Below are positions 544-12,259 of a stretch of 64,000 nt of DNA, piece after piece. The position numbers and the translations under genes are program-made. Numbering within the stretch: position 1 is the stretch's first letter; each line of letters begins with the position of its first letter. The notes under the pieces are model-generated. The model was not told the DNA's origin. It searched no databases and saw only the letters and a program-made list of their open reading frames with translations. The DNA is taken from assembly GCA_964466035.1 (NCBI GenBank), contig CAYXLR010000007.1, forward strand, positions 25,299-89,298, given 5' to 3'. Source of the stretch: an uncultured Thermotogae bacterium. Lineage in GTDB: Bacteria; Bipolaricaulota; Bipolaricaulia; UBA7950; UBA9294.

Positions 544-1773
544 ATGAAACACCACTTCTCAAGCCGGGTGGCCGGAGCGAAACGATCGGCGATTCGCGAG
601 CTTCTCAAACTGACCGAACAACCGGACATCATCTCGTTCGGGGGCGGGCTTCCCGCGCCGGAGACGTTCCCGCACGACGAGATGGCGGAGATCGCGGCGG
701 AGATCATCCGCGAGAACTACGCCAACGTCCTGCAGTACGGACTGACCGAGGGAAGCAAGACGCTCCGCCAGGCGGTCTGCGATTGGCTCGTCCCACAGGG
801 GCTCGAGGTGACGATCGACGAGCTGTTGGTCACGACGGCGTCGCAGCAGGCGCTCGACCTCCTGTGTAAGGCGTTCATCGATCCGGGGGACGTCATTTTC
901 TGCGGCCTGCCGACCTACTTGGGGGCGGTGCAGGCGTTCACCCTCTTCCAGGTCGACCAGATCGGCGTCCCGCTCGAGGACGACGGGATGGACCTCGACG
1001 AGCTCGAACGGCGGATCGAGGGCGCGAAGCGCGAGGGCAAGACGCTGAAGGCGATCTACGTGATCCCCGACTTCCAGAACCCGAGCGGGATCACGATGTC
1101 GCTTGAGAAGAGAAAGCGGCTCCTCGAGATCGCCCGTCGCGAGGACCTGCTGATCTTCGAGGACAACCCGTACGGGTACCTGCGGTTCGCCGGGGAGCCG
1201 GTCCCGTCGATCTGCTCCCTCGACCAGGAGGGGCGGGTCATCATGATGCTCACCTTCTCCAAGACGCTTTGCGCCGGGCTCCGCCTGGCGGTCGTGGTCG
1301 CCCGCGGTGACCTGATGGACGCCCTCGTCCGCGCGAAGCAGGCGACCGATCTGTGCACGTCGAAGCTGACCCAGCATCTGGCGGCGCAGTACATGATTCG
1401 CTACGGACTGGAGAAACACCTCAGGGAGATCCGTCCGATCTATCGGGAGAAGCGGGACGCGATGATCGCCGCGCTCGAGCGGTACATGCCCGAGGACGCG
1501 GGGATCACGTGGACGAACCCGGAGGGCGGCCTGTTCGTCTGGATGCGGCTTCCCGAGGGGATCGATACGACCGACATGCTGCAGGACGCGATCGAGCACA
1601 AGGTCGCGTACGTGCCTGGGGCGTCGTCGTACGTCGACGGCCGGGGACAGAACACGATCCGGCTGTCCTACTCCCTGGTGACGCCCGAAAAGATCGAAGA
1701 GGGGATCCGACGGCTGGCCGGGGTCGTCAAGACGGCGATCGAGGCGAAGCAGGTCGCGGCCGGCGCGCGGTAG
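544..1773 (+). CDS. PLP-dependent aminotransferase, class I/II (2-aminoadipate/aromatic aminotransferase-like)
   Basis: 409 aa; N-terminal KRSAIRELLKL...ISFGGGLP motif typical of LysN/AAT-like aminotransferases; TFSKT lysine motif; RBS gagggaggg upstream. Confidence 0.85.
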   Translation: MKHHFSSRVAGAKRSAIRELLKLTEQPDIISFGGGLPAPETFPHDEMAEIAAEIIRENYANVLQYGLTEGSKTLRQAVCDWLVPQGLEVTIDELLVTTASQQALDLLCKAFIDPGDVIFCGLPTYLGAVQAFTLFQVDQIGVPLEDDGMDLDELERRIEGAKREGKTLKAIYVIPDFQNPSGITMSLEKRKRLLEIARREDLLIFEDNPYGYLRFAGEPVPSICSLDQEGRVIMMLTFSKTLCAGLRLAVVVARGDLMDALVRAKQATDLCTSKLTQHLAAQYMIRYGLEKHLREIRPIYREKRDAMIAALERYMPEDAGITWTNPEGGLFVWMRLPEGIDTTDMLQDAIEHKVAYVPGASSYVDGRGQNTIRLSYSLVTPEKIEEGIRRLAGVVKTAIEAKQVAAGAR

Positions 1774-1799
1774 CAGCGAGAGGCTGACTGAACGAACGC

Positions 1800-1827
1800 G
1801 GGCATCGGGTCGAACGGCTCGATGCCC
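1800..1827. terminator. GC hairpin between convergent genes (possible bidirectional terminator)
   Basis: GGGCATCG-N12-CGATGCCC followed by gatcgtttgtc, between stop codons at 1773 (+) and 1845 (-). Confidence 0.3.
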
Positions 1828-1844
1828 GATCGTTTGTCGACTCG

Positions 1845-2969
1845 CTAGAAGACCGCCTCCGGAAGCGCGTCGACGAGCGCGGTCGTCAGGCGGATCGTGT
1901 TCTCGAGGTCGCCGAGCCGGAGGGTCGAGATCGGCGAGTGGATGTACCGACACGGGACCGAGATCACCCCGGCGAGGACGCCGCCCCGGGTGAGGTGGAT
2001 CGCCCCGGCGTCGGTCCCGCCGTACGTCGGGAGCTTGTACTGATAGGGGATCCCCGCGTTCTCGGCGACCGTCTCCAGGGCGGCGACGATCCTCCTCGAC
2101 ACGACGATCGAGCGGTCGGCGACGGAGATCGCCGGGCCGAGGCCGAGCCGAACCGGCTGGTTTTCGGGGGAGACGCCGGGCATGTCGGCCCCGATCGTCC
2201 CCTCGATCGCGATCGCCAGGTCCGGCTCCAGCTGATACGCCGCCGTCCGGGCGCCGCGGAGGCCGAGCTCTTCGCCGAAGACGAACGAGAAGGCGACGTT
2301 CATCCCGAGCGGTCGCTCGGCGAGCCGGCGGGCCGTCTCGATCAGAACGGTGCAGCCGGCCCGATCGTCGAACGCCTTCCCGGTGACGGTTCCGTTTCGA
2401 AGCTCGGCGAACGGGTAGTGGATCGTGAACGGATCGCCGATCCGGAGGCCCATCTCAGCGGCTTCGTCCTTCGACGTCGCGCCGACGTCGACGAACAGGC
2501 TCTCCATCGGGATCGGCTTCTTCCGCTCCTCGGGAGGGACGATGTGCGGCGGCGCGGTCCCGATGACGCCGTGCAGCTTGGTCCCCTCCCGGGTGAGGAT
2601 CTCGACCCGATGGCCGGGGACGATTCGCTCGTCCCATCCGCCGATCGGCGCGAAGCGCAGGTAGCCGCCCTCGTCGATCCACTTGACGATGAAGCCGACC
2701 TCGTCCGTGTGCGCGTCGAGCATCAGCGTTCGCTCGTCCGCGCGATTCGCCGCGCGGCGAATCGCGAACAGGTTGCCCAGCGCGTCGGTCCTGACCTCGT
2801 CGACGAGCGGCGAGACGAGACCGCGGATCGTCTCCCTCACCTCGTCCTCGAACCCGGAGACGCCGAATCCGTCGGACAGCTCGCGTAGAACGTCGATCGG
2901 TTGCATGGTTCCGAACTCCCTTCTCTGGATCCCTGTCAGATTGGATTGCCTCGATGATCCGCGACGCAC
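1845..2969 (-). CDS. M42-family metallo-aminopeptidase (FrvX/CelM-like)
   Basis: 374 aa; GVSGFEDEV N-terminus and LMLDAHTDEVGF, FGEELGLRG, HSP motifs typical of M42 glutamyl aminopeptidases; 3 nt downstream of uvrC. Confidence 0.85.
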   Translation of the reverse strand: MRRGSSRQSNLTGIQRREFGTMQPIDVLRELSDGFGVSGFEDEVRETIRGLVSPLVDEVRTDALGNLFAIRRAANRADERTLMLDAHTDEVGFIVKWIDEGGYLRFAPIGGWDERIVPGHRVEILTREGTKLHGVIGTAPPHIVPPEERKKPIPMESLFVDVGATSKDEAAEMGLRIGDPFTIHYPFAELRNGTVTGKAFDDRAGCTVLIETARRLAERPLGMNVAFSFVFGEELGLRGARTAAYQLEPDLAIAIEGTIGADMPGVSPENQPVRLGLGPAISVADRSIVVSRRIVAALETVAENAGIPYQYKLPTYGGTDAGAIHLTRGGVLAGVISVPCRYIHSPISTLRLGDLENTIRLTTALVDALPEAVF

Positions 2970-2972
2970 CGG

Positions 2973-4817
2973 TCAGCGTGCAAGATGGTGACGGATCCGC
3001 TCGGCGAGCCCGTCCGGGATTCCGGCCTTCTCCGCGATCTCGTCCGCCGAGGCGTGCTCGAGCCGCGCCACCGAGCCGAACGCCTGGATCAGCGTGCTCT
3101 TCCGCTTCGGGCCGACGCCGGGGATCTCGTCGAGGATCGAGGCGAGGCTCCGCTTCGCGCGAAGCCGCCGGTGGTACGTGACGGCGAACCGGTGCGCCTC
3201 GTCGCGGATCTGGCGCAGCAGCAACAGCGCCGGGCTCTCCGGTTCGAGGACGAGCGGCTCCGATTGACCGGGTCGGAACACCTCCTCGTGCCGCTTCGCC
3301 AGGCCGATCGCCTCGATCCCCTCGATGTTCGCGTCGCGGAGGACGTCGATCGCGACGTTCAGCTGCCCCTTCCCCCCGTCGACGAGGAGGAGGTCGGGGA
3401 GCTCGGAGAACTTCCCCTTGTGGATCGACGGATCGGACAGCTCGGCGAGCCCACGGCGGAAGCGGCGCCCGAGGACCTCGGCCATCATCGCGTAGTCGTC
3501 CGGCTTCCCCGATCTCTGGACCTTGAACCGCCGGTAGGCGTCCCGCCGGGGGCGGCCGTTCTCGAACACGACCATCGAGCCGGTCGCCTCCCCTCCCTGC
3601 GTGTTGGAGACGTCGAACGCCTCGATCCGCTGCGGGAAGACGGACAACGAAAGCGCTTCGGTCAGCTCGACGAGCGCCACGGTCGCCTCCTTCCGGACCG
3701 CCTCGTCCCGCTGCTCCCCCTTCATCGCGAACCGGGCGTTGTCGTTCGCCAGCTCGACCAGCCGGCGCTTCTCGCCGCGCTGGGGGACGCGGGCGTGGAC
3801 CCGCCGACCGCGGAGGTCGGTCAGCCAGGTTTCGAGGCGTTCGGTCTCCTCGATCTCGATCGGGAGGAGGATCTCCCGCGGCACGGACGACGCGTTGGCG
3901 TAGTACTGGGTCAGGAACGCGGAGAGGATCTCGGCTTCGGAGGAGTCGTCCGGGACGCGGAGGTGGTACGACTCCCGTCCGGCCATCCGCCCGCCGCGGA
4001 CGAGGAAGACCTGGGCGGACGCCCGGTCCTCGCCGACCGCCAGGCCGAAGACGTCCCGGTCGATCGTGTCCGGCAGGACGACCGACTGGCGCTCGAGGGT
4101 CCGCAGGAGCGACTCCATCTGATCCCTCAGGTGGGCGGCGCGCTCGAACCGCTGCGCCGCCGCCGCGTCGCGCATCTCCGTTCGGAGGCCGGAGATCAGG
4201 CCGGAGACGCGCCCCTCGAACAGCATCGCCGCCCGATCGACCATCGCCCCGTACTCCTCGAGGCTCACCAGCTCGGCGCACGGCCCGAGGCATCGGCCGA
4301 TGTGGTAGTTGAGGCACGGGCGGCGCGGTGTCTTCAACGGAAGGTCGAGCGTGCAGGTGCGAATCGGGAAGAGCTTCTGGGCGAGCTTCAAGGTCGTGCG
4401 CATCGCCTTGACGCTCGTGTACGGGCCGAAGTAGCGGGCGCCGTCGTCGAACCGTCGCCGGACGACCATCACGTGGGGGAACGGCTCGGCGGTGATCTTC
4501 AGGTACGGATATCGCTTGTCGTCGCGCAGCCGGACGTTGCATCGCGGCTGATGCCGCTTGATCAGCGTGTCCTCGAGGAGGAACGCCTCGGACTCGGTTT
4601 CGGTCTGGATAACCTCGAAGTCGGCGATCTGGGCGACGAGCGACTGCGTCCTCCGCTCCGCCTCGGCCTGCGCCTGGAAGTACGAGCGGACCCGCGATCG
4701 GAGGGAGGCCGCCTTCCCGACGTAGATCACGTCGCCGCGGGCGTCCTTCATCAGGTAGACGCCCGGCGTCGTCGGGAGAGACTTCAGCTTCGCTTCGATC
4801 GAGGGTTCACGTGTCAT
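2973..4817 (-). CDS. uvrC: Excinuclease ABC subunit C
   Basis: 614 aa; N-terminal GIY-YIG (GVYLMKDARGDVIYVGKA), central UvrC family region, C-terminal helix-hairpin-helix (IPGVGPKRKSTLIQAFGS). Confidence 0.95.
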   Translation of the reverse strand: MTREPSIEAKLKSLPTTPGVYLMKDARGDVIYVGKAASLRSRVRSYFQAQAEAERRTQSLVAQIADFEVIQTETESEAFLLEDTLIKRHQPRCNVRLRDDKRYPYLKITAEPFPHVMVVRRRFDDGARYFGPYTSVKAMRTTLKLAQKLFPIRTCTLDLPLKTPRRPCLNYHIGRCLGPCAELVSLEEYGAMVDRAAMLFEGRVSGLISGLRTEMRDAAAAQRFERAAHLRDQMESLLRTLERQSVVLPDTIDRDVFGLAVGEDRASAQVFLVRGGRMAGRESYHLRVPDDSSEAEILSAFLTQYYANASSVPREILLPIEIEETERLETWLTDLRGRRVHARVPQRGEKRRLVELANDNARFAMKGEQRDEAVRKEATVALVELTEALSLSVFPQRIEAFDVSNTQGGEATGSMVVFENGRPRRDAYRRFKVQRSGKPDDYAMMAEVLGRRFRRGLAELSDPSIHKGKFSELPDLLLVDGGKGQLNVAIDVLRDANIEGIEAIGLAKRHEEVFRPGQSEPLVLEPESPALLLLRQIRDEAHRFAVTYHRRLRAKRSLASILDEIPGVGPKRKSTLIQAFGSVARLEHASADEIAEKAGIPDGLAERIRHHLAR

Positions 4818-4887
4818 CGGAGGTCTTGCTCATGGTAGCGACGCCGGGATCGTGCCTCAAATGCCGGTTCAGTGGTTCCTTGGACGG

Positions 4888-4915
4888 TTGATCGGCGCGT
4901 CGACGCCGCTACAAT
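4888..4915 (+). promoter_or_regulatory. Candidate sigma70 promoter for tRNA-Ala
   Basis: TTGATC - 16 nt - TACAAT, -10 ends about 18 nt before tRNA 5' end. Confidence 0.45.
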
Positions 4916-4933
4916 GGCCTCCCGAAGAACCCT

Positions 4934-5010
4934 GGGGGTGTAGCTCTAATTGGGAGAGCGCCCGCCTTGCACGCGGGAGGATGGCGGTTCGAATCCGCTC
5001 GCCTCCACCA
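4934..5010 (+). tRNA. tRNA-Ala (anticodon TGC), CCA encoded
   Basis: Cloverleaf readable by eye: acceptor GGGGGTG/CGCCTCC with G3:U70 Ala identity pair, anticodon loop CTTGCAC, T-arm GGCGGTTCGAATCCGCT, terminal ACCA. Confidence 0.93.
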
Positions 5011-5123
5011 GGACTACGGTACCAAGGTGTGTACACCCGCCGAACTCTTCTGGGGCGTCGCCCGCGAATACACTCACGACGAGGCCTGAGGGGTCAATAC
5101 CATTCCGGAACTGGACAGCCTAA

Positions 5124-5594
5124 GTGTTCGAAACAGAGAAGGAGATTCTGTCTGGGCTTCTTCGATTCTGCCTCAAGCAGCTTGTGGATGCTGGGCGAGT
5201 TGAAGAAGGCAACATAGTCGGCGCGTACCACGTGGACTTCGAGGCAACCGACGAGCTTGCGGGCAGCGGGCAAGCCGCGGCAACTACTCAGGACCGGCTG
5301 GGACATGCTGTTGTTCTATTTGATCCTGCGTGGGGTTCTGAAGCAGCTGCTTGGGCGATCCCCCACGAAGCATTTCACGTAGCTCAGTTCTGCTGCGGAG
5401 ATCTCGTGAACCTAGGAGGGGGCAGGAAGCTCTGGAAGGGAGAAGCATATGAGTCTCTGGCTTCCGATGATCCACATTATTCAGAGCAGCCATGGGAAGC
5501 CGAAGCATTCGCACACGATGAGGAGCTTCGCAGCACCATGAGGAGGCAGTACCCGGATCTCGACTCCCGCTTACAACAAGAGGAGGAGCACTGA
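5124..5594 (+). CDS. Small HExxH protein, ImmA/IrrE (COG2856)-like metallopeptidase candidate; start codon uncertain (GTG at 5124 is first possible)
   Basis: 156 aa; HEAFH zinc motif followed ~37 aa later by PWEAEAFAH, resembling the HExxH...ExEAxxFA layout of ImmA/IrrE peptidases. Confidence 0.5.
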   Translation: MFETEKEILSGLLRFCLKQLVDAGRVEEGNIVGAYHVDFEATDELAGSGQAAATTQDRLGHAVVLFDPAWGSEAAAWAIPHEAFHVAQFCCGDLVNLGGGRKLWKGEAYESLASDDPHYSEQPWEAEAFAHDEELRSTMRRQYPDLDSRLQQEEEH

Positions 5595-5640
5595 CTTCGG
5601 CAGGCCCACCCTGTCAGACAGAGATGAGGTGTCCCCGGGC

Positions 5641-5656
5641 TCTCCAATCGTTCACC
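5641..5656 (+). repeat. Island repeat copy A (TCTCCAATCGTTCACC)
   Basis: 16-nt core identical to copies at 7761 and 11143; lies 47 nt after stop of ORF 5124..5594. Confidence 0.7.
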
Positions 5657-5772
5657 TCGGCTTGATCCTGGACCATCCATGGGTAATTGCTCTGTGTTCT
5701 CAGTTGGTGTCTGCTGAGGGACTTGGCATAGACTAGCTCCACAGACAACGCGACAAACGGGAGCGGATCGGG

Positions 5773-7611
5773 ATGCCTGAGGCGAAGGAGTACCCACACA
5801 CATCTATCAAGTGGAGTGAGACTTACACGAAGACGGGGCTCGTCCGCTACGTCGTTGAGATTCGACATCTTGAGCTAAGCAAGTACCGTGTGATAAAGGA
5901 TCCTGATAGGGGAATCGCTCGCTCGAAGGCAGAGGCCCAGCTGAAGGGATGGCATCAGCAGTGGGAGAAAAGGGAGCACATCCGCAAGCAAAAGGAGGAT
6001 GCTGCGGAGAGAACGACGCTTGCCCAAGAGCGGCTCGCGCAAGTGCAAGGCATACTGCAGACCGGTCTCACAAGAAGGACCAAGATAACGGCTCGCTCGA
6101 AGTGGTACAAGTTCCCGGAGAAGGAGCCGCGGGAGCCCAGGAAGCCGAAGCTTCAGAAGGTCCCCAGGAAGCCATCGCCGAAGAGACGACCGCAAAAGCC
6201 GGAGCCAGATCCTGGCACGAAGCCGACAGAGACAGGCATAGAGTATCAAGTGAAGAGCGGGTTCCTGGCCTGGTTAGCTGGCGGCTCGCGCGCCAAGCGT
6301 GAGGCCGATGCCCGGCAGTGGTTCAGGAGCGATCTGACAGCATGGGAGACTGCCCAGAGGGAGGCGCTTGAGAAGTGGGGATCCCGCTGCCGTGAACTCG
6401 ATTCGGAGGATCAAGCTGCCCTTTCAGCGTGGGAGAAGCGAGTATCCGAAGTGCGGAAGAAGAATGCCGAGAAGCAAGAGACCTACGCGATCGAGAGAGA
6501 GAAGTGGGAAGAGAAAAGGAGCAGGTGGGCTGAGAAGAAAGAGTCGCATGAGGCAGCTGTACGGAGCCTTTTCGAGAACTATCGCGACAGGGAGCCGGAA
6601 GCAGTGTGCAGCTATCTATCAGCTGTTCTGGACGAAAGCTCCTACCCGGAGTGGATTCCCAGGGAACACGACATCTACTACAACACCGAGACGAAGACAG
6701 CAGTCGTAGATTATCGACTGCCAGCCCCATCCGATCTTCCGGCTATCAAGGAAGTCTCGTATGTCCAGGCGCGGGACGAGTTCACAGAAAAGCCCATACC
6801 CGTCCGGGATTGCGAGAAGCTGTACGACTCCGCTATCTACCAAGTGGCCCTCAGGACCTTGCACGAGTGCTTCGAGGCCACGGCCGACAGTGTTCTTACG
6901 TCGGTCGTGTTCAACGGCTATGTCAGGACCAAGGATGCGGCTACTGGCAAGGGGATACGCCCGTGCATTCTCTCTGTCCAGACCCAACGGGGCGAGTTCT
7001 CAGCAATCGATCTTGCATCTGTAGATCCCAAGGAGTGCGTCAGGAAACTGAGAGGTATCGGAAGCTCCAAACTGCATGCACTGGCGCCAATCGCACCGAT
7101 TCTGTCTTTCGACAAGGAAGACTCGAGGTTTGTCGAGGGTCGCGACATTCTGGGGCGTGTGAGCGAAGGCAGCAACCTTGCTGCCATGGACTGGGAGGAC
7201 TTCGAACATCTCATCCGGGGGGTCTTCGAGGGGTATTTCGCCGACATTGACGGGGATGTGAAAGTCACCCAGGCAAGCCGTGACAAGGGCGTCGATGCAG
7301 TGGTATTCGACCCAGATCCTGTTACTGGTGGGAAAATCATCATACAGGCGAAGCGCTACACGAATACGGTGTCCGTAGCAGCGGTCCGGGAGTTGCTCGG
7401 CACTGTCCAGAATGAAGGTGCAAAACTCGGCATCCTTGTCGCGACATCGCAGTTCGGACCGGATGCGATTCAGCTGGCTGCAGAGTGGCCGATTAACCTG
7501 ATTGACGGCGGCAACCTGCTGCACTTGCTGGCAGAGCAGGGCCGCAAAGCCTACATCGACATCCGGGAAGCGCGGGAGATTCTCAAGGAGCGAGAAGGCG
7601 AGGCGAGCTAG
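5773..7611 (+). CDS. Mrr-type (Mrr_cat, PD-(D/E)xK) restriction endonuclease domain fused to a ~440-aa coiled-coil/Lys-Pro-rich N-terminal region
   Basis: 612 aa; C-terminus WEDFEHLIRGVFEGY...DKGVDAVV...IIIQAKRY...VRELLG...GILVATSQF matches the Mrr catalytic-domain pattern (D...(D/E)xK = QAK); N-terminus is charged heptad-like plus PRKPKLQKVPRKPSPKRRPQKPEP. Confidence 0.75.
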   Translation: MPEAKEYPHTSIKWSETYTKTGLVRYVVEIRHLELSKYRVIKDPDRGIARSKAEAQLKGWHQQWEKREHIRKQKEDAAERTTLAQERLAQVQGILQTGLTRRTKITARSKWYKFPEKEPREPRKPKLQKVPRKPSPKRRPQKPEPDPGTKPTETGIEYQVKSGFLAWLAGGSRAKREADARQWFRSDLTAWETAQREALEKWGSRCRELDSEDQAALSAWEKRVSEVRKKNAEKQETYAIEREKWEEKRSRWAEKKESHEAAVRSLFENYRDREPEAVCSYLSAVLDESSYPEWIPREHDIYYNTETKTAVVDYRLPAPSDLPAIKEVSYVQARDEFTEKPIPVRDCEKLYDSAIYQVALRTLHECFEATADSVLTSVVFNGYVRTKDAATGKGIRPCILSVQTQRGEFSAIDLASVDPKECVRKLRGIGSSKLHALAPIAPILSFDKEDSRFVEGRDILGRVSEGSNLAAMDWEDFEHLIRGVFEGYFADIDGDVKVTQASRDKGVDAVVFDPDPVTGGKIIIQAKRYTNTVSVAAVRELLGTVQNEGAKLGILVATSQFGPDAIQLAAEWPINLIDGGNLLHLLAEQGRKAYIDIREAREILKEREGEAS

Positions 7612-7644
7612 GGCGCATGCCTCCAACCGCGTTTCAGCCGGAGG

Positions 7645-7684
7645 TTCTCCAAACGTTTACCTCGGGTCTCCCGTCTTGAGACGG
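7645..7684 (+). repeat. Island repeat copy B1 (degenerate: TTCTCCAAACGTTTACC) plus adjacent GTCTCC..TTGAGACG hairpin
   Basis: 34 nt after stop of 5773..7611; CCGTCTTGAGACGG hairpin also recurs after copy C (GTCTCCTTGAGAC at 11191). Confidence 0.6.
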
Positions 7685-7757
7685 CTGCTTCAGTAGGTAG
7701 TAGGTGGCAAGTAGCGTGTAGGAGAAGACTACAAGCCCAGGTGCACATCAGAACGAA

Positions 7758-7783
7758 GGTTCTCCAATCGTTCACCCAGGCTC
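7758..7783 (+). repeat. Island repeat copy B2 (GGTTCTCCAATCGTTCACCCAGGCTC)
   Basis: 26/26 nt identical, same orientation, to 11140..11165. Confidence 0.85.
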
Positions 7784-8097
7784 CATACGAACTGAAGGCT
7801 AACACCTTCCTCTTCTACGTTACCGCCCGATTTGGAAAACAGACTCGAGGTTCATGAATGAAGAACTACCTCGTACTTCCTTTATCCGTTGGGTCGTCAC
7901 ATCAGGCGGAGGTGGGAAGCACCCTCCTTGTCTACGAAGGGCGAGACAGATCTTCTAGGTTAGAGCGTGTTTTTCCTGAGAACCGGTTTATCCTATAATC
8001 CCCTCAAGGATGACGTGAGGATGGCCTGACGATCGCCTGTCGATGGGGGAATCTAGCGTCTACATGCAGCCCTTGCCGGCTGCTATGGGGGAGTGAG

Positions 8098-11070
8098 ATG
8101 CGGGTTTCGGTAGCGGATTGTGCAGGATGTTGCACGTCCTGGAAGTGCAGGCGTCTGGGCAATGCCTTTGGGTCCTTCCTCCTTGGTGCTTTCCTCTTTC
8201 TTGTCGTGGCTCCACCATCTCTGGCAACGTCGACAGGCTCATGGGTAGAGGTTAGCTTCAATGGGGAAGTAGTTGAAGTTCACACCGGCGCGCCCATCGG
8301 GTGGTTCTGCAAGATTAGAGTAGATCAAGTCATTCATGGGACTATTGATTGCAGCTATGTAGAGATCTGGCCAGTACATTGGGTATCCGCTGAAGGCCAA
8401 TTGTATGAGCCACCTACGGAAGGCGATAGGGTGGAGTTCTTCGGAGAAGTTGGCAAGGCCCCCGAGGTCGTTCGCTGTGCGCTTCGCCTCTCGGAGCCCA
8501 GCCACTACCTTAAGAAGACGGCGGGTGGAACGCCGCAGGCTTCATGCATCGACACTGTCATCACGGGAAAGGTCATCAGTGACGTCGCTTACTCGCCCCA
8601 CAGACGCTTCAGTCTTCGCATCAATGATGTCATCAAGAACGACAGCAATGCACCAAGCATTGCTACTGGGAATAGCATCCTTGTCGTTTTTTCCTCGGCG
8701 TTAGATCACGTCGTCGGACCGCTGCGAGTCGGAGACTGTGTGAGGATAGGTGGCACTTGGGGGAAAGGCGCCGCCCAGGAAGTACCTGGCTTGCGTTGCG
8801 ATCCCGCCACTTGTCGCGATCACTCTTTGGAGGAAGTCGCCTGCTCTTCGATAGCGGAAATCAGATTCCTAGGAACAGTAACGGAGCCGGACAATCAGAT
8901 GCTTGATGATGCTTTTGATTGCAAGGTGAGAATCAAGGAGGTGCTCGAGAAGCCATCCGAAATCGTAGTCAACCAGGGAGACGAGGTGCTCGTCCATATG
9001 TGGATCTGGTGTGGCCTGTGGCAAGGCGGGCTGACTGATCAGCCTGGCGGAAGTATCATTCCCGAAGGCTGGAATCCTGTACAAGGGGACAGCGTCGAAG
9101 TGTATGGGCGTCTCTCCGAAGAGTACACCAGCATCCCTGGGCATTCGCCAAGTTCGCGTTCAGTCGATCTATGTGGTTCAGACGGCTACTACATCATGCA
9201 GCTCTCTGGTGAGGGAGATCGAGACGGCGACGGCCTTCCCGATTGGAAAGAGGAAATAGCCGGAACGGACCCAGACGACCCAGACAGCGATGATGATGGG
9301 CTTTCAGATGGCCAGGAGCTGAACGGGTGGTCCGTGGGAGATCTGCCGGTTTATGACGCCTCATCCAATGGGAACCTCCCTCTAACTGCCTTAGTTGGAT
9401 ACTTGAATGTAGATGGCACATGGGGAGGAGGGTGGGATCTATATCCCGAAGACTTCGACGGAGACGGCGATCACGATCTTCAATTCCCACTTTTTCCACC
9501 ACCCTACCTTGAGCGAGATATCAATGGCGATGGTGTCTGCGATCTGGAGGATGAGGCCGCCATCTGCTACCTGACTCCGACAATCGTGAAGACAGATCCA
9601 AATAACGAAGACACAGACGGCGATCTGAGGATAGATGCTAATGATCCGTTTCCCACGACGTATGTTTCGAAGTGGGAGATCTGCGTTGAAGGGATCAAGA
9701 ACCTTTATGGAGTCCAGCGATACAATGGGCCGGCGCGCTCCGTGCAGACTTGCCTGCAAGCGTGGTATACCTACGGATACGCGATGGATCCACTGCAAGC
9801 CTACGAGGTTAGCGATCCCAAGCAGGTGAACCTTCGTTACGACTACGATGGAGATGGGATCTCGTTGGTCGCGGAGACCTTGTTCGAGACTCTTCCTGGT
9901 CTGGAGCGTCAACCGGGAGGAGAATTCTTCGATGTCAACCCAGTGGAACAAGCGCTGGACACCGACAAAGATGGGATCGATGATCTCAGCGAGATTCTCC
10001 TTCAGTTGAATCCGAATACGTATATCTATCAGCATAAGAAACTGGCGTTTGTTGAGATTGCGCCGATTGACTCGAAACTGGGTGTGGCGGGAACGGTATA
10101 CGTTGACATCGACGACGCTCTCGGATCATCCCTTGATGGTAAAGCCGACCCTTCATGGGTCACACTCTGGATTGGCACCAGCGTAAGCCTCGGGAAATCG
10201 ATTCTGCCATTCATTGATGGGGGATTCACCTATGTGCCGGTCTCAGTCTCAACTGAGGACGATAATTCTTTGCCCTCTGGATGGAATCTACAGCTGGCCG
10301 TATTCGACACGAGCGGTAGCTTTCACTTCAACCCAGCTTTTGCAGTCTCATACGATGTCCAGGTTGCGAAGTTCGATGTTCGTAGGGATGTTTTCGATGC
10401 CCTAGGATTAGATGCGCTAAGGGGAAGGATTACCCCGTTCTTCCCGTTCTTGCACGAGTCCGAGTTCCGAAACTGGCTGATGGATGCCTTAGAAGGCATC
10501 GCTCAAGGGGAGTATCCGGAAGGTGTTCGTCCCGCGGAATTCACTGGTACAGAGAGCGGCTTCGTCGTTACGGCAGTATGTCCTGTGGACATAGCGGTGA
10601 CGGATCCCGAAGGACGCCACATCACTAGGTCGGAGAGCACGATCCCGGGAGCCACATACGTGGAGGCCGATCTTGATGGTGATGACGATCCAGATGACCG
10701 AATTACGATCCCTTATCGCGTTGTAGGAGACTATCAGATACGCGTCTTCCCCGAACCGAGGGCAATGCGTGCGGACTCTTATACACTGAGCGTCTGGGCA
10801 GGTGGAGAGACAACGATTTTGGATGACGACGTTTTGGTACAAGACGTGCCTGAGTCCCCGTACATCGTGAATCTGTCCGAAGACGGGCTCATCCACACCG
10901 AAGAACCCGTTAGCACCACCGACAGCGGAAGGAGCCTGGGGGCAGGAGCGATCGCCGTGCTCGTTGTGGGGAGTCTAGGATTCGTCGCTGGTTGTGTTTG
11001 GGGTTTCCGGTACTTTCGTTCACGTACTGGATCTGGAGGAAAGAGCTCAGGAACCATCTGGCTCAAATGA
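8098..11070 (+). CDS. Large membrane-anchored surface protein with thrombospondin-type-3/dockerin-like Ca-binding Asp repeats
   Basis: 990 aa; N-terminal signal-like segment (FLLGAFLFLVVAPPSLA); DRDGDGLPDWKEEIAGTDPDDPDSDDDGLSDGQE, DFDGDGDHD, DINGDGVCDLEDE, DTDKDGIDDLSE repeats; C-terminal TM helix AIAVLVVGSLGFVAGCVWGF + basic tail. Confidence 0.7.
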   Translation: MRVSVADCAGCCTSWKCRRLGNAFGSFLLGAFLFLVVAPPSLATSTGSWVEVSFNGEVVEVHTGAPIGWFCKIRVDQVIHGTIDCSYVEIWPVHWVSAEGQLYEPPTEGDRVEFFGEVGKAPEVVRCALRLSEPSHYLKKTAGGTPQASCIDTVITGKVISDVAYSPHRRFSLRINDVIKNDSNAPSIATGNSILVVFSSALDHVVGPLRVGDCVRIGGTWGKGAAQEVPGLRCDPATCRDHSLEEVACSSIAEIRFLGTVTEPDNQMLDDAFDCKVRIKEVLEKPSEIVVNQGDEVLVHMWIWCGLWQGGLTDQPGGSIIPEGWNPVQGDSVEVYGRLSEEYTSIPGHSPSSRSVDLCGSDGYYIMQLSGEGDRDGDGLPDWKEEIAGTDPDDPDSDDDGLSDGQELNGWSVGDLPVYDASSNGNLPLTALVGYLNVDGTWGGGWDLYPEDFDGDGDHDLQFPLFPPPYLERDINGDGVCDLEDEAAICYLTPTIVKTDPNNEDTDGDLRIDANDPFPTTYVSKWEICVEGIKNLYGVQRYNGPARSVQTCLQAWYTYGYAMDPLQAYEVSDPKQVNLRYDYDGDGISLVAETLFETLPGLERQPGGEFFDVNPVEQALDTDKDGIDDLSEILLQLNPNTYIYQHKKLAFVEIAPIDSKLGVAGTVYVDIDDALGSSLDGKADPSWVTLWIGTSVSLGKSILPFIDGGFTYVPVSVSTEDDNSLPSGWNLQLAVFDTSGSFHFNPAFAVSYDVQVAKFDVRRDVFDALGLDALRGRITPFFPFLHESEFRNWLMDALEGIAQGEYPEGVRPAEFTGTESGFVVTAVCPVDIAVTDPEGRHITRSESTIPGATYVEADLDGDDDPDDRITIPYRVVGDYQIRVFPEPRAMRADSYTLSVWAGGETTILDDDVLVQDVPESPYIVNLSEDGLIHTEEPVSTTDSGRSLGAGAIAVLVVGSLGFVAGCVWGFRYFRSRTGSGGKSSGTIWLK

Positions 11071-11130
11071 GGGACTTCCGCCTCTCTGCGTACATGATCG
11101 AGCTGTAGCATCTGTTGAGGGTTTGTGTAA

Positions 11131-11571
11131 TTGGGCCCGGGTTCTCCAATCGTTCACCCAGGCTCTACCACGGCAAGCGCTGATGTCGAAGTCTCCTTGA
11201 GACGTCCGGTTGTGGTCTTTCCCGCGAAGGTTCCCTACGCTTGTTTCATCGTGTCCGAGGACGGTGGGTTCGAACGAGAGGCCGGGCCGTTCGTCAAGCT
11301 GTGGGCCGGGGTCTGCTCCGTGACCGGCTGGCGTTGCCGCTGTCCGCGCTGCGGCGGCAAGATGAAGCGGGCGTCCGCCCCCGACGAATCGTACAGACGT
11401 TCGAAACGGGCCGGCCCTCCTGCGGGGTCGGTGAGGATGGCCGGGCAATTGAGCACGCTTCGGAGTTCGGGAAGCGCCTATCGACAGGTCGAGATTACCC
11501 CGACCTACGATGTCTGCGCGGAGTGTGGCCATCGGTTCCGACGTCGAAACATCAAGTCGACCGTCGGCTAG
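11131..11571 (+). CDS. Hypothetical zinc-ribbon protein (true start unknown, TTG at 11131 is only the first possible)
   Basis: Two CxxC pairs ~60 aa apart (CPRCGG ... CAECGH); high-GC third positions; no recognisable family. Confidence 0.3.
   Translation: MGPGSPIVHPGSTTASADVEVSLRRPVVVFPAKVPYACFIVSEDGGFEREAGPFVKLWAGVCSVTGWRCRCPRCGGKMKRASAPDESYRRSKRAGPPAGSVRMAGQLSTLRSSGSAYRQVEITPTYDVCAECGHRFRRRNIKSTVG
11140..11165 (+). repeat. Island repeat copy C (GGTTCTCCAATCGTTCACCCAGGCTC)
   Basis: Identical 26-mer to 7758..7783; 70 nt after stop of 8098..11070; GC content rises shortly downstream. Confidence 0.85.
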
Positions 11572-11617
11572 GAAGCGATTCCCCAGGAGCTTGATAATTG
11601 CAGCGGTGTGACGGATC

Positions 11618-11643
11618 ATGGTGAATGAACGTTCATTCACCAT
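11618..11643. promoter_or_regulatory. Perfect 26-bp palindrome, candidate TetR operator overlapping the tetR start codon
   Basis: ATGGTGAATGAAC|GTTCATTCACCAT; explains why + and - strand ORFs both begin MVNERSFTM. Confidence 0.6.
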
Positions 11644-12259
11644 GACGAACCACGAGCCTCAAGAGACCCAGAACACCCGAGAGCGGATCCGCGAAGCGGC
11701 GGTCCGCGTCTTCTCCCGCGACGGCTTCGATCGATCGGCTGTGAAGTCGATCGCCGAGGAGGCCGGCGTCGCCGTCGGGTCGATCTACAACCACTTCCGC
11801 GACAAGGACGACCTGCTGATCTCGATCTTCGAGGACGAGTTCGACACCCGGATCTCATTCCTCGAGGAGATGAAGAGGGCGCAACTCCCGGTTCGCGATC
11901 AGGTGGAGCGTCTCCTCGCCGATCACTTCGCGAGGATCCGCGAGCACAAGGAGCTCGCCGAGCTCATGCTGTACGAGCGCTTCCACCGCGGCGGTCGCCT
12001 GCGCGAGCGGATCGTCCCGCTGCAGCGGAGAACCGTCGATCGGATCGCCGAGATCCTCCGCGCCGGGATCGCCGAGGGGTGGATCCGCCCCTGCCATCCG
12101 CAGGTCGTCGCCCAGGCGCTGCTCGATCTGGTGCAGACGATGACCGCCTGCCGGGTCCTCTCGGATCCGGACGAGGCCGACGAGATCTTCGGGGCGGCCC
12201 CGAAGGAGCTCGCCGACCTGATGTGGAAGGGACTCCGCCGAAGTGAAGACGACGAATAG
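11642..12259 (+). CDS. TetR/AcrR-family transcriptional regulator (start taken at ATG 11642; ATG 11618 inside palindrome is alternative)
   Basis: N-terminal HTH RERIREAAVRVFSRDGFDRSAVKSIAEEAGVAVGSIYNHFRDKDDL typical of TetR_N. Confidence 0.9.
   Translation: MTNHEPQETQNTRERIREAAVRVFSRDGFDRSAVKSIAEEAGVAVGSIYNHFRDKDDLLISIFEDEFDTRISFLEEMKRAQLPVRDQVERLLADHFARIREHKELAELMLYERFHRGGRLRERIVPLQRRTVDRIAEILRAGIAEGWIRPCHPQVVAQALLDLVQTMTACRVLSDPDEADEIFGAAPKELADLMWKGLRRSEDDE

Follow-up and report, generated by a model that had tools for sequence, protein, structure and literature searches.

A low-GC islet between tRNA-Ala and a conserved flank

A 64-kb stretch of contig CAYXLR010000007.1 (here called the window), from an uncultured member of the Bipolaricaulota, contains a segment of low guanine-plus-cytosine (GC) content that abuts the 3' end of a tRNA-Ala(TGC) gene. 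This islet carries three open reading frames (ORFs), all on the plus strand, which encode a small HExxH protein (ORF1), an Mrr-type nuclease (ORF2), and a secreted or surface protein (ORF3) (Table 1). Members of a repeat family, overlooked in a preliminary description made from the sequence alone, lie in every intergenic gap of the islet and are candidate joints between its genes.

The GC content of positions 5011-11139 was 55.5%, compared with 67.4% in the left flank, 65.9% in the right flank, and 66.9% in the window without the islet; these positions form the lowest-GC 6.1-kb stretch across the window. GC content at third codon positions was 0.56 to 0.68 for the three islet genes and 0.87 to 0.93 for those encoding UvrC, TetR, and MMPL. 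The islet starts at the last base of the tRNA gene. Its left flank is 91 to 95% identical to those of two close relatives, L160 and L161 (L numbers designate the loci that were compared), up to the last tRNA bases; homology stops at 5007/5008, the tRNA end, and complete divergence follows. On the other side, homology to L161 (86%) and L064 (79%) begins at 11140/11141, and the sequences are unrelated to the left of that point. We moved the right edge of the islet from 11165 to 11140, the point at which homology to the relatives restarts, exactly at a repeat copy. The preliminary description had reported a low-GC stretch on the tRNA-Ala 3' end and three plus-strand ORFs, and both were confirmed.

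Table 1. Features of the islet, named according to the proposed array of cassettes and joints
Feature	Coordinates	Strand	Description	Source
tRNA-Ala(TGC)	4934-5010	+	Left anchor of the islet, attB/attL-like	ARAGORN + Rfam
ORF1	5124-5594	+	156 aa; minimal HExxH...WExEA zincin-like protein (putative); cassette 1	
Solo repeat copy	5634-5662	+	Joint between the ORF1 and Mrr cassettes	
ORF2	5773-7611	+	612 aa; most likely a stand-alone Mrr-family (Type IV-like) restriction endonuclease; cassette 2	
Full composite repeat	7643-7866	+	A, 7643-7667; B, 7758-7782; inverted C, 7850-7866	
ORF3	8098-11070	+	990 aa; secreted/surface protein; cassette 3	
Terminal solo repeat copy, B type	11136-11164	+	Right joint of the islet	

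Domain searches detected no integrase or transposase among the three islet ORFs, which fill the space of the islet, and no phage genes were found in it. We also searched for tyrosine recombinases using four seeds (XerC, XerD, lambda Int, and IntA, with phmmer/hmmsearch) and a box-II regular expression. None was found in the whole window with the four seeds, in agreement with the earlier statement that the islet lacks a recombinase.

The evidence that follows is comparative and comes from fragmented metagenome contigs, some of them of related populations. In L161, the same tRNA-Ala site is occupied by a segment of 1.67 kb that contains a single unknown gene, and the locus rejoins the window exactly at 11141; L160 holds more than 9.8 kb of DNA encoding Big_9/PKD/dockerin proteins. 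A gene for a ParA-like ATPase lies between tRNA-Ala and TetR in L040. The cargo of L010, which occupies the same chromosomal site, includes genes for Mrr, a 181-aa protein, a hydrolase, and a trypsin. In L080, a 1130-aa nSTAND3/nSTAND5 NTPase (3626-7018, minus strand) adjoins a 752-aa TPR protein (865-3123, minus strand), a pair that looks like another defense-type cargo. The islet is thus strain variable, with cargo that differs in every relative at this site, and foreign in composition, in support of the earlier view of a low-GC island on the tRNA-Ala 3' end. The sister loci also lack an integrase, and none was detected at any of nine loci.

Anatomy and distribution of the repeat

Copies of the motif GGTTCTCCAATCGTTCACCCAGGCT were located at positions 5634, 7639, 7754, and 11136, with one or more in each gap of the islet. 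Together with one inverted copy, these four direct copies are the total for the window; the remainder of the 64 kb has none, and chance alone would be expected to give no copy. The motif measures 17 to 25 nucleotides (nt) and can be traced by the sequence GTTCTCCAAWCGTTCAC. A full composite of ~220 bp is built from two direct copies (A and B) and one inverted copy (C) of this single motif, in the order A, a spacer of ~97 nt, B, a "trailer" of ~73 nt, and inverted C. The B copy is preceded by ~35 conserved bases and followed by CTCCACCAGAAC, making up a conserved B block of ~60 nt. We identified 51 distinct full composites of 219 to 235 nt (nearly all of 219 to 223 nt), that of the window among them, with sharp edges and unrelated flanks. 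Their A and C ends form imperfect terminal inverted repeats, and no consistent target-site duplication was visible around the 51 composites.

The motif was present on at least 120 metagenome contigs, as well as on ~20 contigs of metagenome-assembled genomes (MAGs) classified as Bipolaricaulota or mislabeled "uncultured Thermotogae," including the close relative GCA_964523545.1. Among species-representative genomes, it was found almost only in Bipolaricaulota MAGs. At loci from high-GC Bipolaricaulota (L182, L185, L186, L190, and L192), the repeat lies in local low-GC patches (55 to 60% versus 64 to 69%), which suggests that more islets of the same kind occur at loci other than tRNA-Ala. A 17-mer scan of viral contigs gave 24 single matches, a number judged to be at chance level.

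The repeat is apparently undescribed so far. A search of positions 4500-12000 against Rfam (E ≤ 1) returned only the tRNA, and the repeat matches no Rfam family. The possibility that the repeat acts as a structured RNA was rejected after RNAalifold, applied to the 51 copies, yielded 13 pairs at -3.98 kcal/mol, with only a 7-bp pairing of the ends; z-scores of single-copy folds were not significant except for one (-2.5). Among the known families that could be tested, none matched a tRNA-anchored, recombinase-less array with a tripartite repeat. No paper on the repeat array was found in literature searches, which were not aimed at the repeat itself, so that this silence counts for little.

The repeat units coincide with the points at which the homology between strains breaks. 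At the terminal copy, the window, L161, and L064 are unrelated on the left and homologous rightwards from the first base of the copy, and the full composite of the window is flanked on its left side only by sequence homologous to the Mrr loci L010 and L087. For pairs of units from different contigs in which both flanks could be tested, 117 share one flank only and 25 share both. Adjacent units in one contig have the same orientation in 43 of 50 cases (p = 2e-7), and the units are co-oriented with tRNA-Ala at all eight loci where the two occur together (the window, L040, L080, L095, L133, L145, L160, and L161).

The repeat is also linked to the tRNA gene by position. In L160, L161, L133, and L040, the sequence after the 3' end of tRNA-Ala is the very trailer plus C block that come after B in the composite; because the same sequences come after both, the tRNA 3' end and B are positional equivalents. 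Two variants of the trailer exist, and each is found both behind B blocks and behind the tRNA (L160, 9700-9890; L161, 9715-9890). L160 and L161 carry different trailer variants, although their flanks are 91 to 95% identical. As a separate observation on the tRNA genes, the tRNA-Ala of L161 has no genomically encoded CCA (…CTCCATACGAAC), while those of the window and L160 have CCACCAG or CCACAG.

Genes of the islet and of its flanks

The Mrr_cat domain (PF04471) was detected at aa 470-586 of ORF2 with a score of 98.4 bits (cut-off, 21; E value, 3.6e-28). ORF2 also matched the PADLOC model mREase_IV PDLC03663, annotated as "Type IV methyl-directed restriction enzyme," with 231.8 bits (E value, 3.8e-69) over aa 227-592, corresponding to 365 of 544 model positions. 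Its homologues number more than 1300 and come from many phyla, including Verrucomicrobia, Ignavibacteria, Nitrosomonas, and Methanobacterium. Since nearly all of the 120 matches listed cover 92 to 100% of the protein, what had been described as a nuclease fusion is the standard layout of a big family. In 83 homologues, the catalytic residues E478, Q525, and K527 are invariant and D508 is nearly so, and ORF2 has all of them. In the AlphaFold (AF2) model of ORF2 (pLDDT, 89), the nuclease is preceded, in order, by a small sheet at the N terminus, a coiled coil of great length, and a middle domain of the alpha/beta type (aa 275-430, predicted at high confidence), which is a candidate DNA-recognition domain. 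The best Foldseek matches of this model were the modification-dependent enzymes MspJI and AspBHI over 290 to 390 columns, with TM-scores that are low because the query has several domains; a sequence search of the PDB gave no match.

ORF2 thus resembles the Type IV restriction enzymes (Mrr, MspJI, AspBHI, and the mREase_IV of PADLOC) in its PD-(D/E)xK core and in having no methyltransferase partner, since none is encoded in the islet or its flanks; it differs from them by the added N-terminal beta-sheet and a coiled coil of ~100 residues. Most likely, ORF2 acts alone as a Type IV-like restriction endonuclease that cuts invading DNA. It is probably modification dependent. Judged by these matches, it is a routine member of a very large, already catalogued single-gene family. 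The earlier view of ORF2 as a defense-type Mrr nuclease is borne out by the Mrr_cat and PADLOC matches, whereas its assignment to a nameless system was overturned by the nearly full-length match to the catalogued single-gene system mREase_IV.

ORF1 had no match in Pfam (E ≤ 0.01), PADLOC, or NCBIfam. A word-indexed search recovered only four homologues, and an exhaustive search with a profile gave 244 cluster representatives, most of them small proteins. In 92 relatives, H81, E82, H85, W124, and E125 are invariant and E127 is nearly so. The Pfam families matched by these relatives were DUF6782 (28 of 92), SprT-like (8 of 92), and Peptidase_M78 (4 of 92, weakly, with a best E value of 0.003). 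In profile searches of the PDB, the best match of ORF1 was the minigluzincin MJ1213/projannalysin, with a borderline E value of 0.005; IrrE scored 1.3. The AF2 model of ORF1 (pLDDT, 49) was too poor for a fold search, and the order of its secondary structure elements is compatible with a zincin fold, within the limits of that poor model and of the borderline PDB match.

ORF1 had been called ImmA-like. It does share with ImmA/IrrE the HExxH motif and a conserved downstream Glu (WExEA), and the name holds at the level of the zincin superfamily. It does not hold for the M78 family: ORF1 has no PF06114 match, its relatives favor DUF6782 and SprT-like, and no gene for an HTH repressor (ImmR-like) adjoins ORF1 or the homologues examined. 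The nearest families are the minimal gluzincins (DUF6782, SprT-like, and MJ1213/projannalysin). On sequence grounds, ORF1 is a minimal zincin-like protein with no demonstrable ImmA/IrrE affiliation, that is, a putative small zinc peptidase with predicted activity and without a demonstrable tie to ORF2. ORF1 also matches phrog_16532 and phrog_10499 (E values of ~2e-8), which are phage protein families of unknown function, and a hypothetical protein of Caulobacter phage Cr30 (KF301602.1, 40774-41115); an anti-defense role of the family in phages is conceivable.

In the preliminary description, ORF1 and ORF2 were proposed to form a two-gene immunity module. Such a module, or one for toxin control, in which the ORF1 peptidase might activate or restrain the ORF2 nuclease, draws on the arrangement of the two genes (neighbors in the same orientation, with 178 nt between them) and on the mobile or defense settings of both families, with ORF1 relatives near PemK or PIN genes and in phages and Mrr homologues in defense islands. 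The proposal did not withstand a comparison of gene neighborhoods: homologues of each gene occur without the other, and the proposal fails by the refuting conditions that the preliminary description had itself set. The pair was seen only on contigs of this one population. Unrelated genes, and no Mrr gene, stand next to the ORF1 homologue of L001 (66% identity). In L201 (75% identity), homology to the window extends over 5129-5656, through ORF1, and ends at a repeat copy; the next 500 nt are unrelated and contain no Mrr start. More distant ORF1 relatives adjoin other small genes, PemK or PIN. Conversely, Mrr homologues at 66 to 77% identity (L003 and L013-15) have no adjoining ORF1 homologue. 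That of L003 lies in a defense island with SIR2 and a type I restriction-modification system, and those of L013-15 (e.g., L013, 10001-15218), at 75% identity, lie near a second Mrr_cat gene (392 aa), Endonuclease_NS, and an IS1595 transposase. Upstream of the Mrr gene of L010, the 496 nt covered are a repeat composite, with no ORF1 homologue. ORF1 and ORF2 appear to be separate cassettes, because a repeat unit lies between them and homology between strains breaks there. Together with the unequal sizes of the two families (more than 1300 members versus 244 representatives) and the fit of ORF2 to a single-gene PADLOC system, these findings make a functional module of the two genes highly improbable. 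Two side observations were made at these loci: region 600-1101 of L201, located 3' of the ORF1 homologue and of the accompanying repeat copy, is AT richer and has several short CTTTGCGAGAG-like motifs, and a degenerate repeat motif follows the stop codon of the Mrr homologue of L013-15.

ORF3 has an N-terminal hydrophobic segment, several DxDxDG repeats (thrombospondin-type-3-like, of the calcium-binding type), and a C-terminal membrane anchor. It had no match in Pfam, and only a weak match to CglD repeats was found at the family level. ORF3 is a strain-specific, variable cell envelope protein. Large secreted proteins, some of them paralogous across contigs, are also the commonest cargo adjoining repeat units elsewhere (loci L040-L159), with PKD/BNR, trypsin plus beta-helix, and caspase plus Ig domain types among them.

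The left flank of the islet encodes UvrC, an M42 peptidase, and an aminotransferase, and the right flank encodes a small CxxC protein (the Zn-ribbon ORF), a TetR regulator, and an MMPL exporter. The small ORF predicted at 11131-11571 (plus strand) has two CxxC pairs, weak zinc ribbon matches, and 70% protein identity in L064. On account of a weak match to Zn_ribbon_recom, it was considered as a recombinase remnant and rejected; it encodes a small CxxC protein that is a conserved component of the right flank. A perfect 30-bp palindrome, TCATGGTGAATGAAC|GTTCATTCACCATGA, at 11616-11645, spans the start codon of TetR and is 100% conserved in L161 and L064 amid surroundings that are 79 to 86% identical. 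It is probably the TetR operator.

Proposed origin of the islet

We favor, at slightly better than even chances, the reading that three single-gene cassettes make up the segment as a strain-variable array, which extends from tRNA-Ala to the conserved flank and is joined at att-like repeats. The cassettes (ORF1 plus repeat, Mrr plus repeat, and surface protein plus repeat) would have been acquired and shuffled independently. In its size and in its three copies of a single motif, two direct and one inverted, the composite calls to mind an attP with arm-type sites. By analogy, the composite may be laid out as an attP, with B beside a short core, CTCCACCAG, common to the tRNA-Ala 3' end, and with A and C as arm sites. 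A small circle would integrate at the tRNA, with B and the tRNA end crossing over near CTCCACCAG. The first integration would produce the order tRNA-trailer-C, cargo, A-spacer-B, and flank, which is the layout in the relatives; further integration into either hybrid site would regenerate a full A-B-C unit between cassettes and give rise to co-oriented arrays. The recombinase would be unlinked and act in trans. As an alternative mechanism, RecA or homologous recombination may act on the conserved B block of ~60 nt after DNA uptake from relatives.

Several results weigh against a joining role of the repeats. No tyrosine recombinase was found in 1.23 Mb of repeat-bearing loci, either with the seeds or with the box-II regular expression, although the same seeds recovered integrases in control viral contigs. 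Among 136 ORFs of the repeat loci, Pfam recognized only flanking housekeeping genes, secreted proteins, and a single Mutator transposase. No empty tRNA-Ala site was seen among the relatives compared, and no circular or other recombination intermediates were observed in the contigs. The likeness of B to the tRNA-Ala 3' end consists of a shared GGTTC and CTCCACCAG, in an alignment that is marginal against shuffled sequences (p ~0.02). Genes show no orientation bias relative to the units (45 versus 35 for composites and 46 versus 30 for solo copies), such as a terminator or an attC-like site would be expected to produce. The array of the window is itself degenerate, with no C block after the tRNA and solo copies at two of its three joints. 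Finally, the contig counts are not fully independent, and many of the contigs may come from related populations.

The main rival holds that the repeats are a selfish or regulatory intergenic family that is abundant in foreign or lower-GC DNA and has no joining role, the islet having been swapped by homologous recombination in its flanks (uvrC/tRNA-Ala on one side and the Zn-ribbon ORF/TetR on the other). Modular intergenic repeats include BOX (A-B-C), REP/BIME, Correia, and other miniature inverted-repeat transposable elements (MITEs), and tRNA-flanked hot spots between core genes are common. Like these repeats, the composite is a discrete, noncoding, modular unit of near-constant length (~220 bp), with sharp edges and imperfect terminal inverted repeats (A versus C), that is dispersed in intergenic DNA. 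It also adjoins housekeeping genes, and the absence of a gene orientation preference and of a linked recombinase would be natural for such a family. Against a MITE- or BOX-like family stand the co-orientation of adjacent units (43/50) and of units with the tRNA (8/8), the excess of one-sided over two-sided homology (117 versus 25), and the lack of a visible target-site duplication. Moreover, the tRNA-trailer-C layout and the exchange of its trailer variants among strains that are nearly identical indicate that crossovers took place at the 3' end of the tRNA. We consider the main rival rather doubtful. That the islet is instead the decayed remnant of one tRNA-integrated island or prophage that has lost its integrase, its repeats being degraded att scars with nothing mobile left, seems still less probable. 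The tRNA docking, the foreign GC content, the missing integrase, and the degenerate joints of the window (solo copies, and a tRNA that no C block follows) would all suit a remnant. The same units, however, bound different single genes in dozens of contigs, no phage genes were found, and the cargo differs between strains with flanks that are 91 to 95% identical, which implies ongoing turnover rather than one old insertion.

The array of cassettes shares features with several known systems. Tyrosine integrases build tRNA-docked islands, including by tandem accretion at one tRNA. Like such islands, the islet abuts a tRNA 3' end, has a foreign GC content, varies between strains, and has direct repeats that bound its segments; the order tRNA-trailer-C ... 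A-B-flank matches the expected attL/attR, and the composite is close to a classical attP in size and has, in both orientations, repeated sites that resemble protein-binding sites. Unlike them, it has no integrase, its units are single genes, and its repeat is only weakly like the tRNA; the distal boundary is a B-type repeat at 11140, with the marginal tRNA likeness (p ~0.02) noted above. Integrons and clusters of attC sites lacking integrases (CALINs) are likewise composed mostly of single-gene units with conserved, co-oriented sites that recur in different neighborhoods, carry defense and unknown genes as cargo, and, as here, may have no recombinase in the array. In contrast to integrons, there is no IntI in the window or in the 1.23 Mb of repeat loci. 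By sequence and RNAalifold, the repeat has neither an attC palindrome nor RYYYAAC/GTTRRRY cores, from which GTTCTCCAAWCGTTCAC deviates; the cassette genes have no fixed orientation relative to the site, and the dock is a tRNA gene rather than an attI beside intI. In chromosomal integrons, natural transformation is described as driving cassette shuffling by homologous recombination (PMC12614218).

Another comparison is with the Xer-dependent dif modules (pdif) of Acinetobacter plasmids, which have short sites at their ends and are moved by a recombinase encoded elsewhere. Short bounding sites and the absence of a recombinase from the module are common to pdif modules and the array; unlike pdif, the motif has no inverted 11-bp arms around a 6-bp spacer, and the units are direct, not alternating. 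Overall, half of the features of classical islands and half of those of MITEs were found, and the IntI and attC of integrons were absent. We therefore advance only tentatively, as a possibility well short of an even chance, that the array represents an undescribed, integron-like form of gene capture in Bipolaricaulota. It would use co-oriented single-gene cassettes, the tRNA-Ala(TGC) 3' end as the primary dock, an attP-like site of ~220 bp in which one 17-nt motif occurs three times (twice direct and once inverted) together with a core akin to the acceptor end of tRNA-Ala, and a recombinase located elsewhere in the genome. Under the same tentative reading, its cargo would include many proteins that are secreted or exposed on the cell surface, along with defense nucleases and STAND NTPases.

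The repeat architecture matters more than the nuclease, which defense finders already catalogue and of which the peptidase is not the partner. The motif GTTCTCCAAWCGTTCAC offers a simple handle by which the pool of variable genes in these organisms can be retrieved from metagenomes. If the ~220-bp units are recombination sites, bacteria would have, in addition to integrons, a second means of storing and shuffling single-gene cassettes. Such a system would have a tRNA gene as its anchor, would belong to a candidate phylum without cultured members, and would explain the turnover of strain-specific surface proteins and defense genes there.

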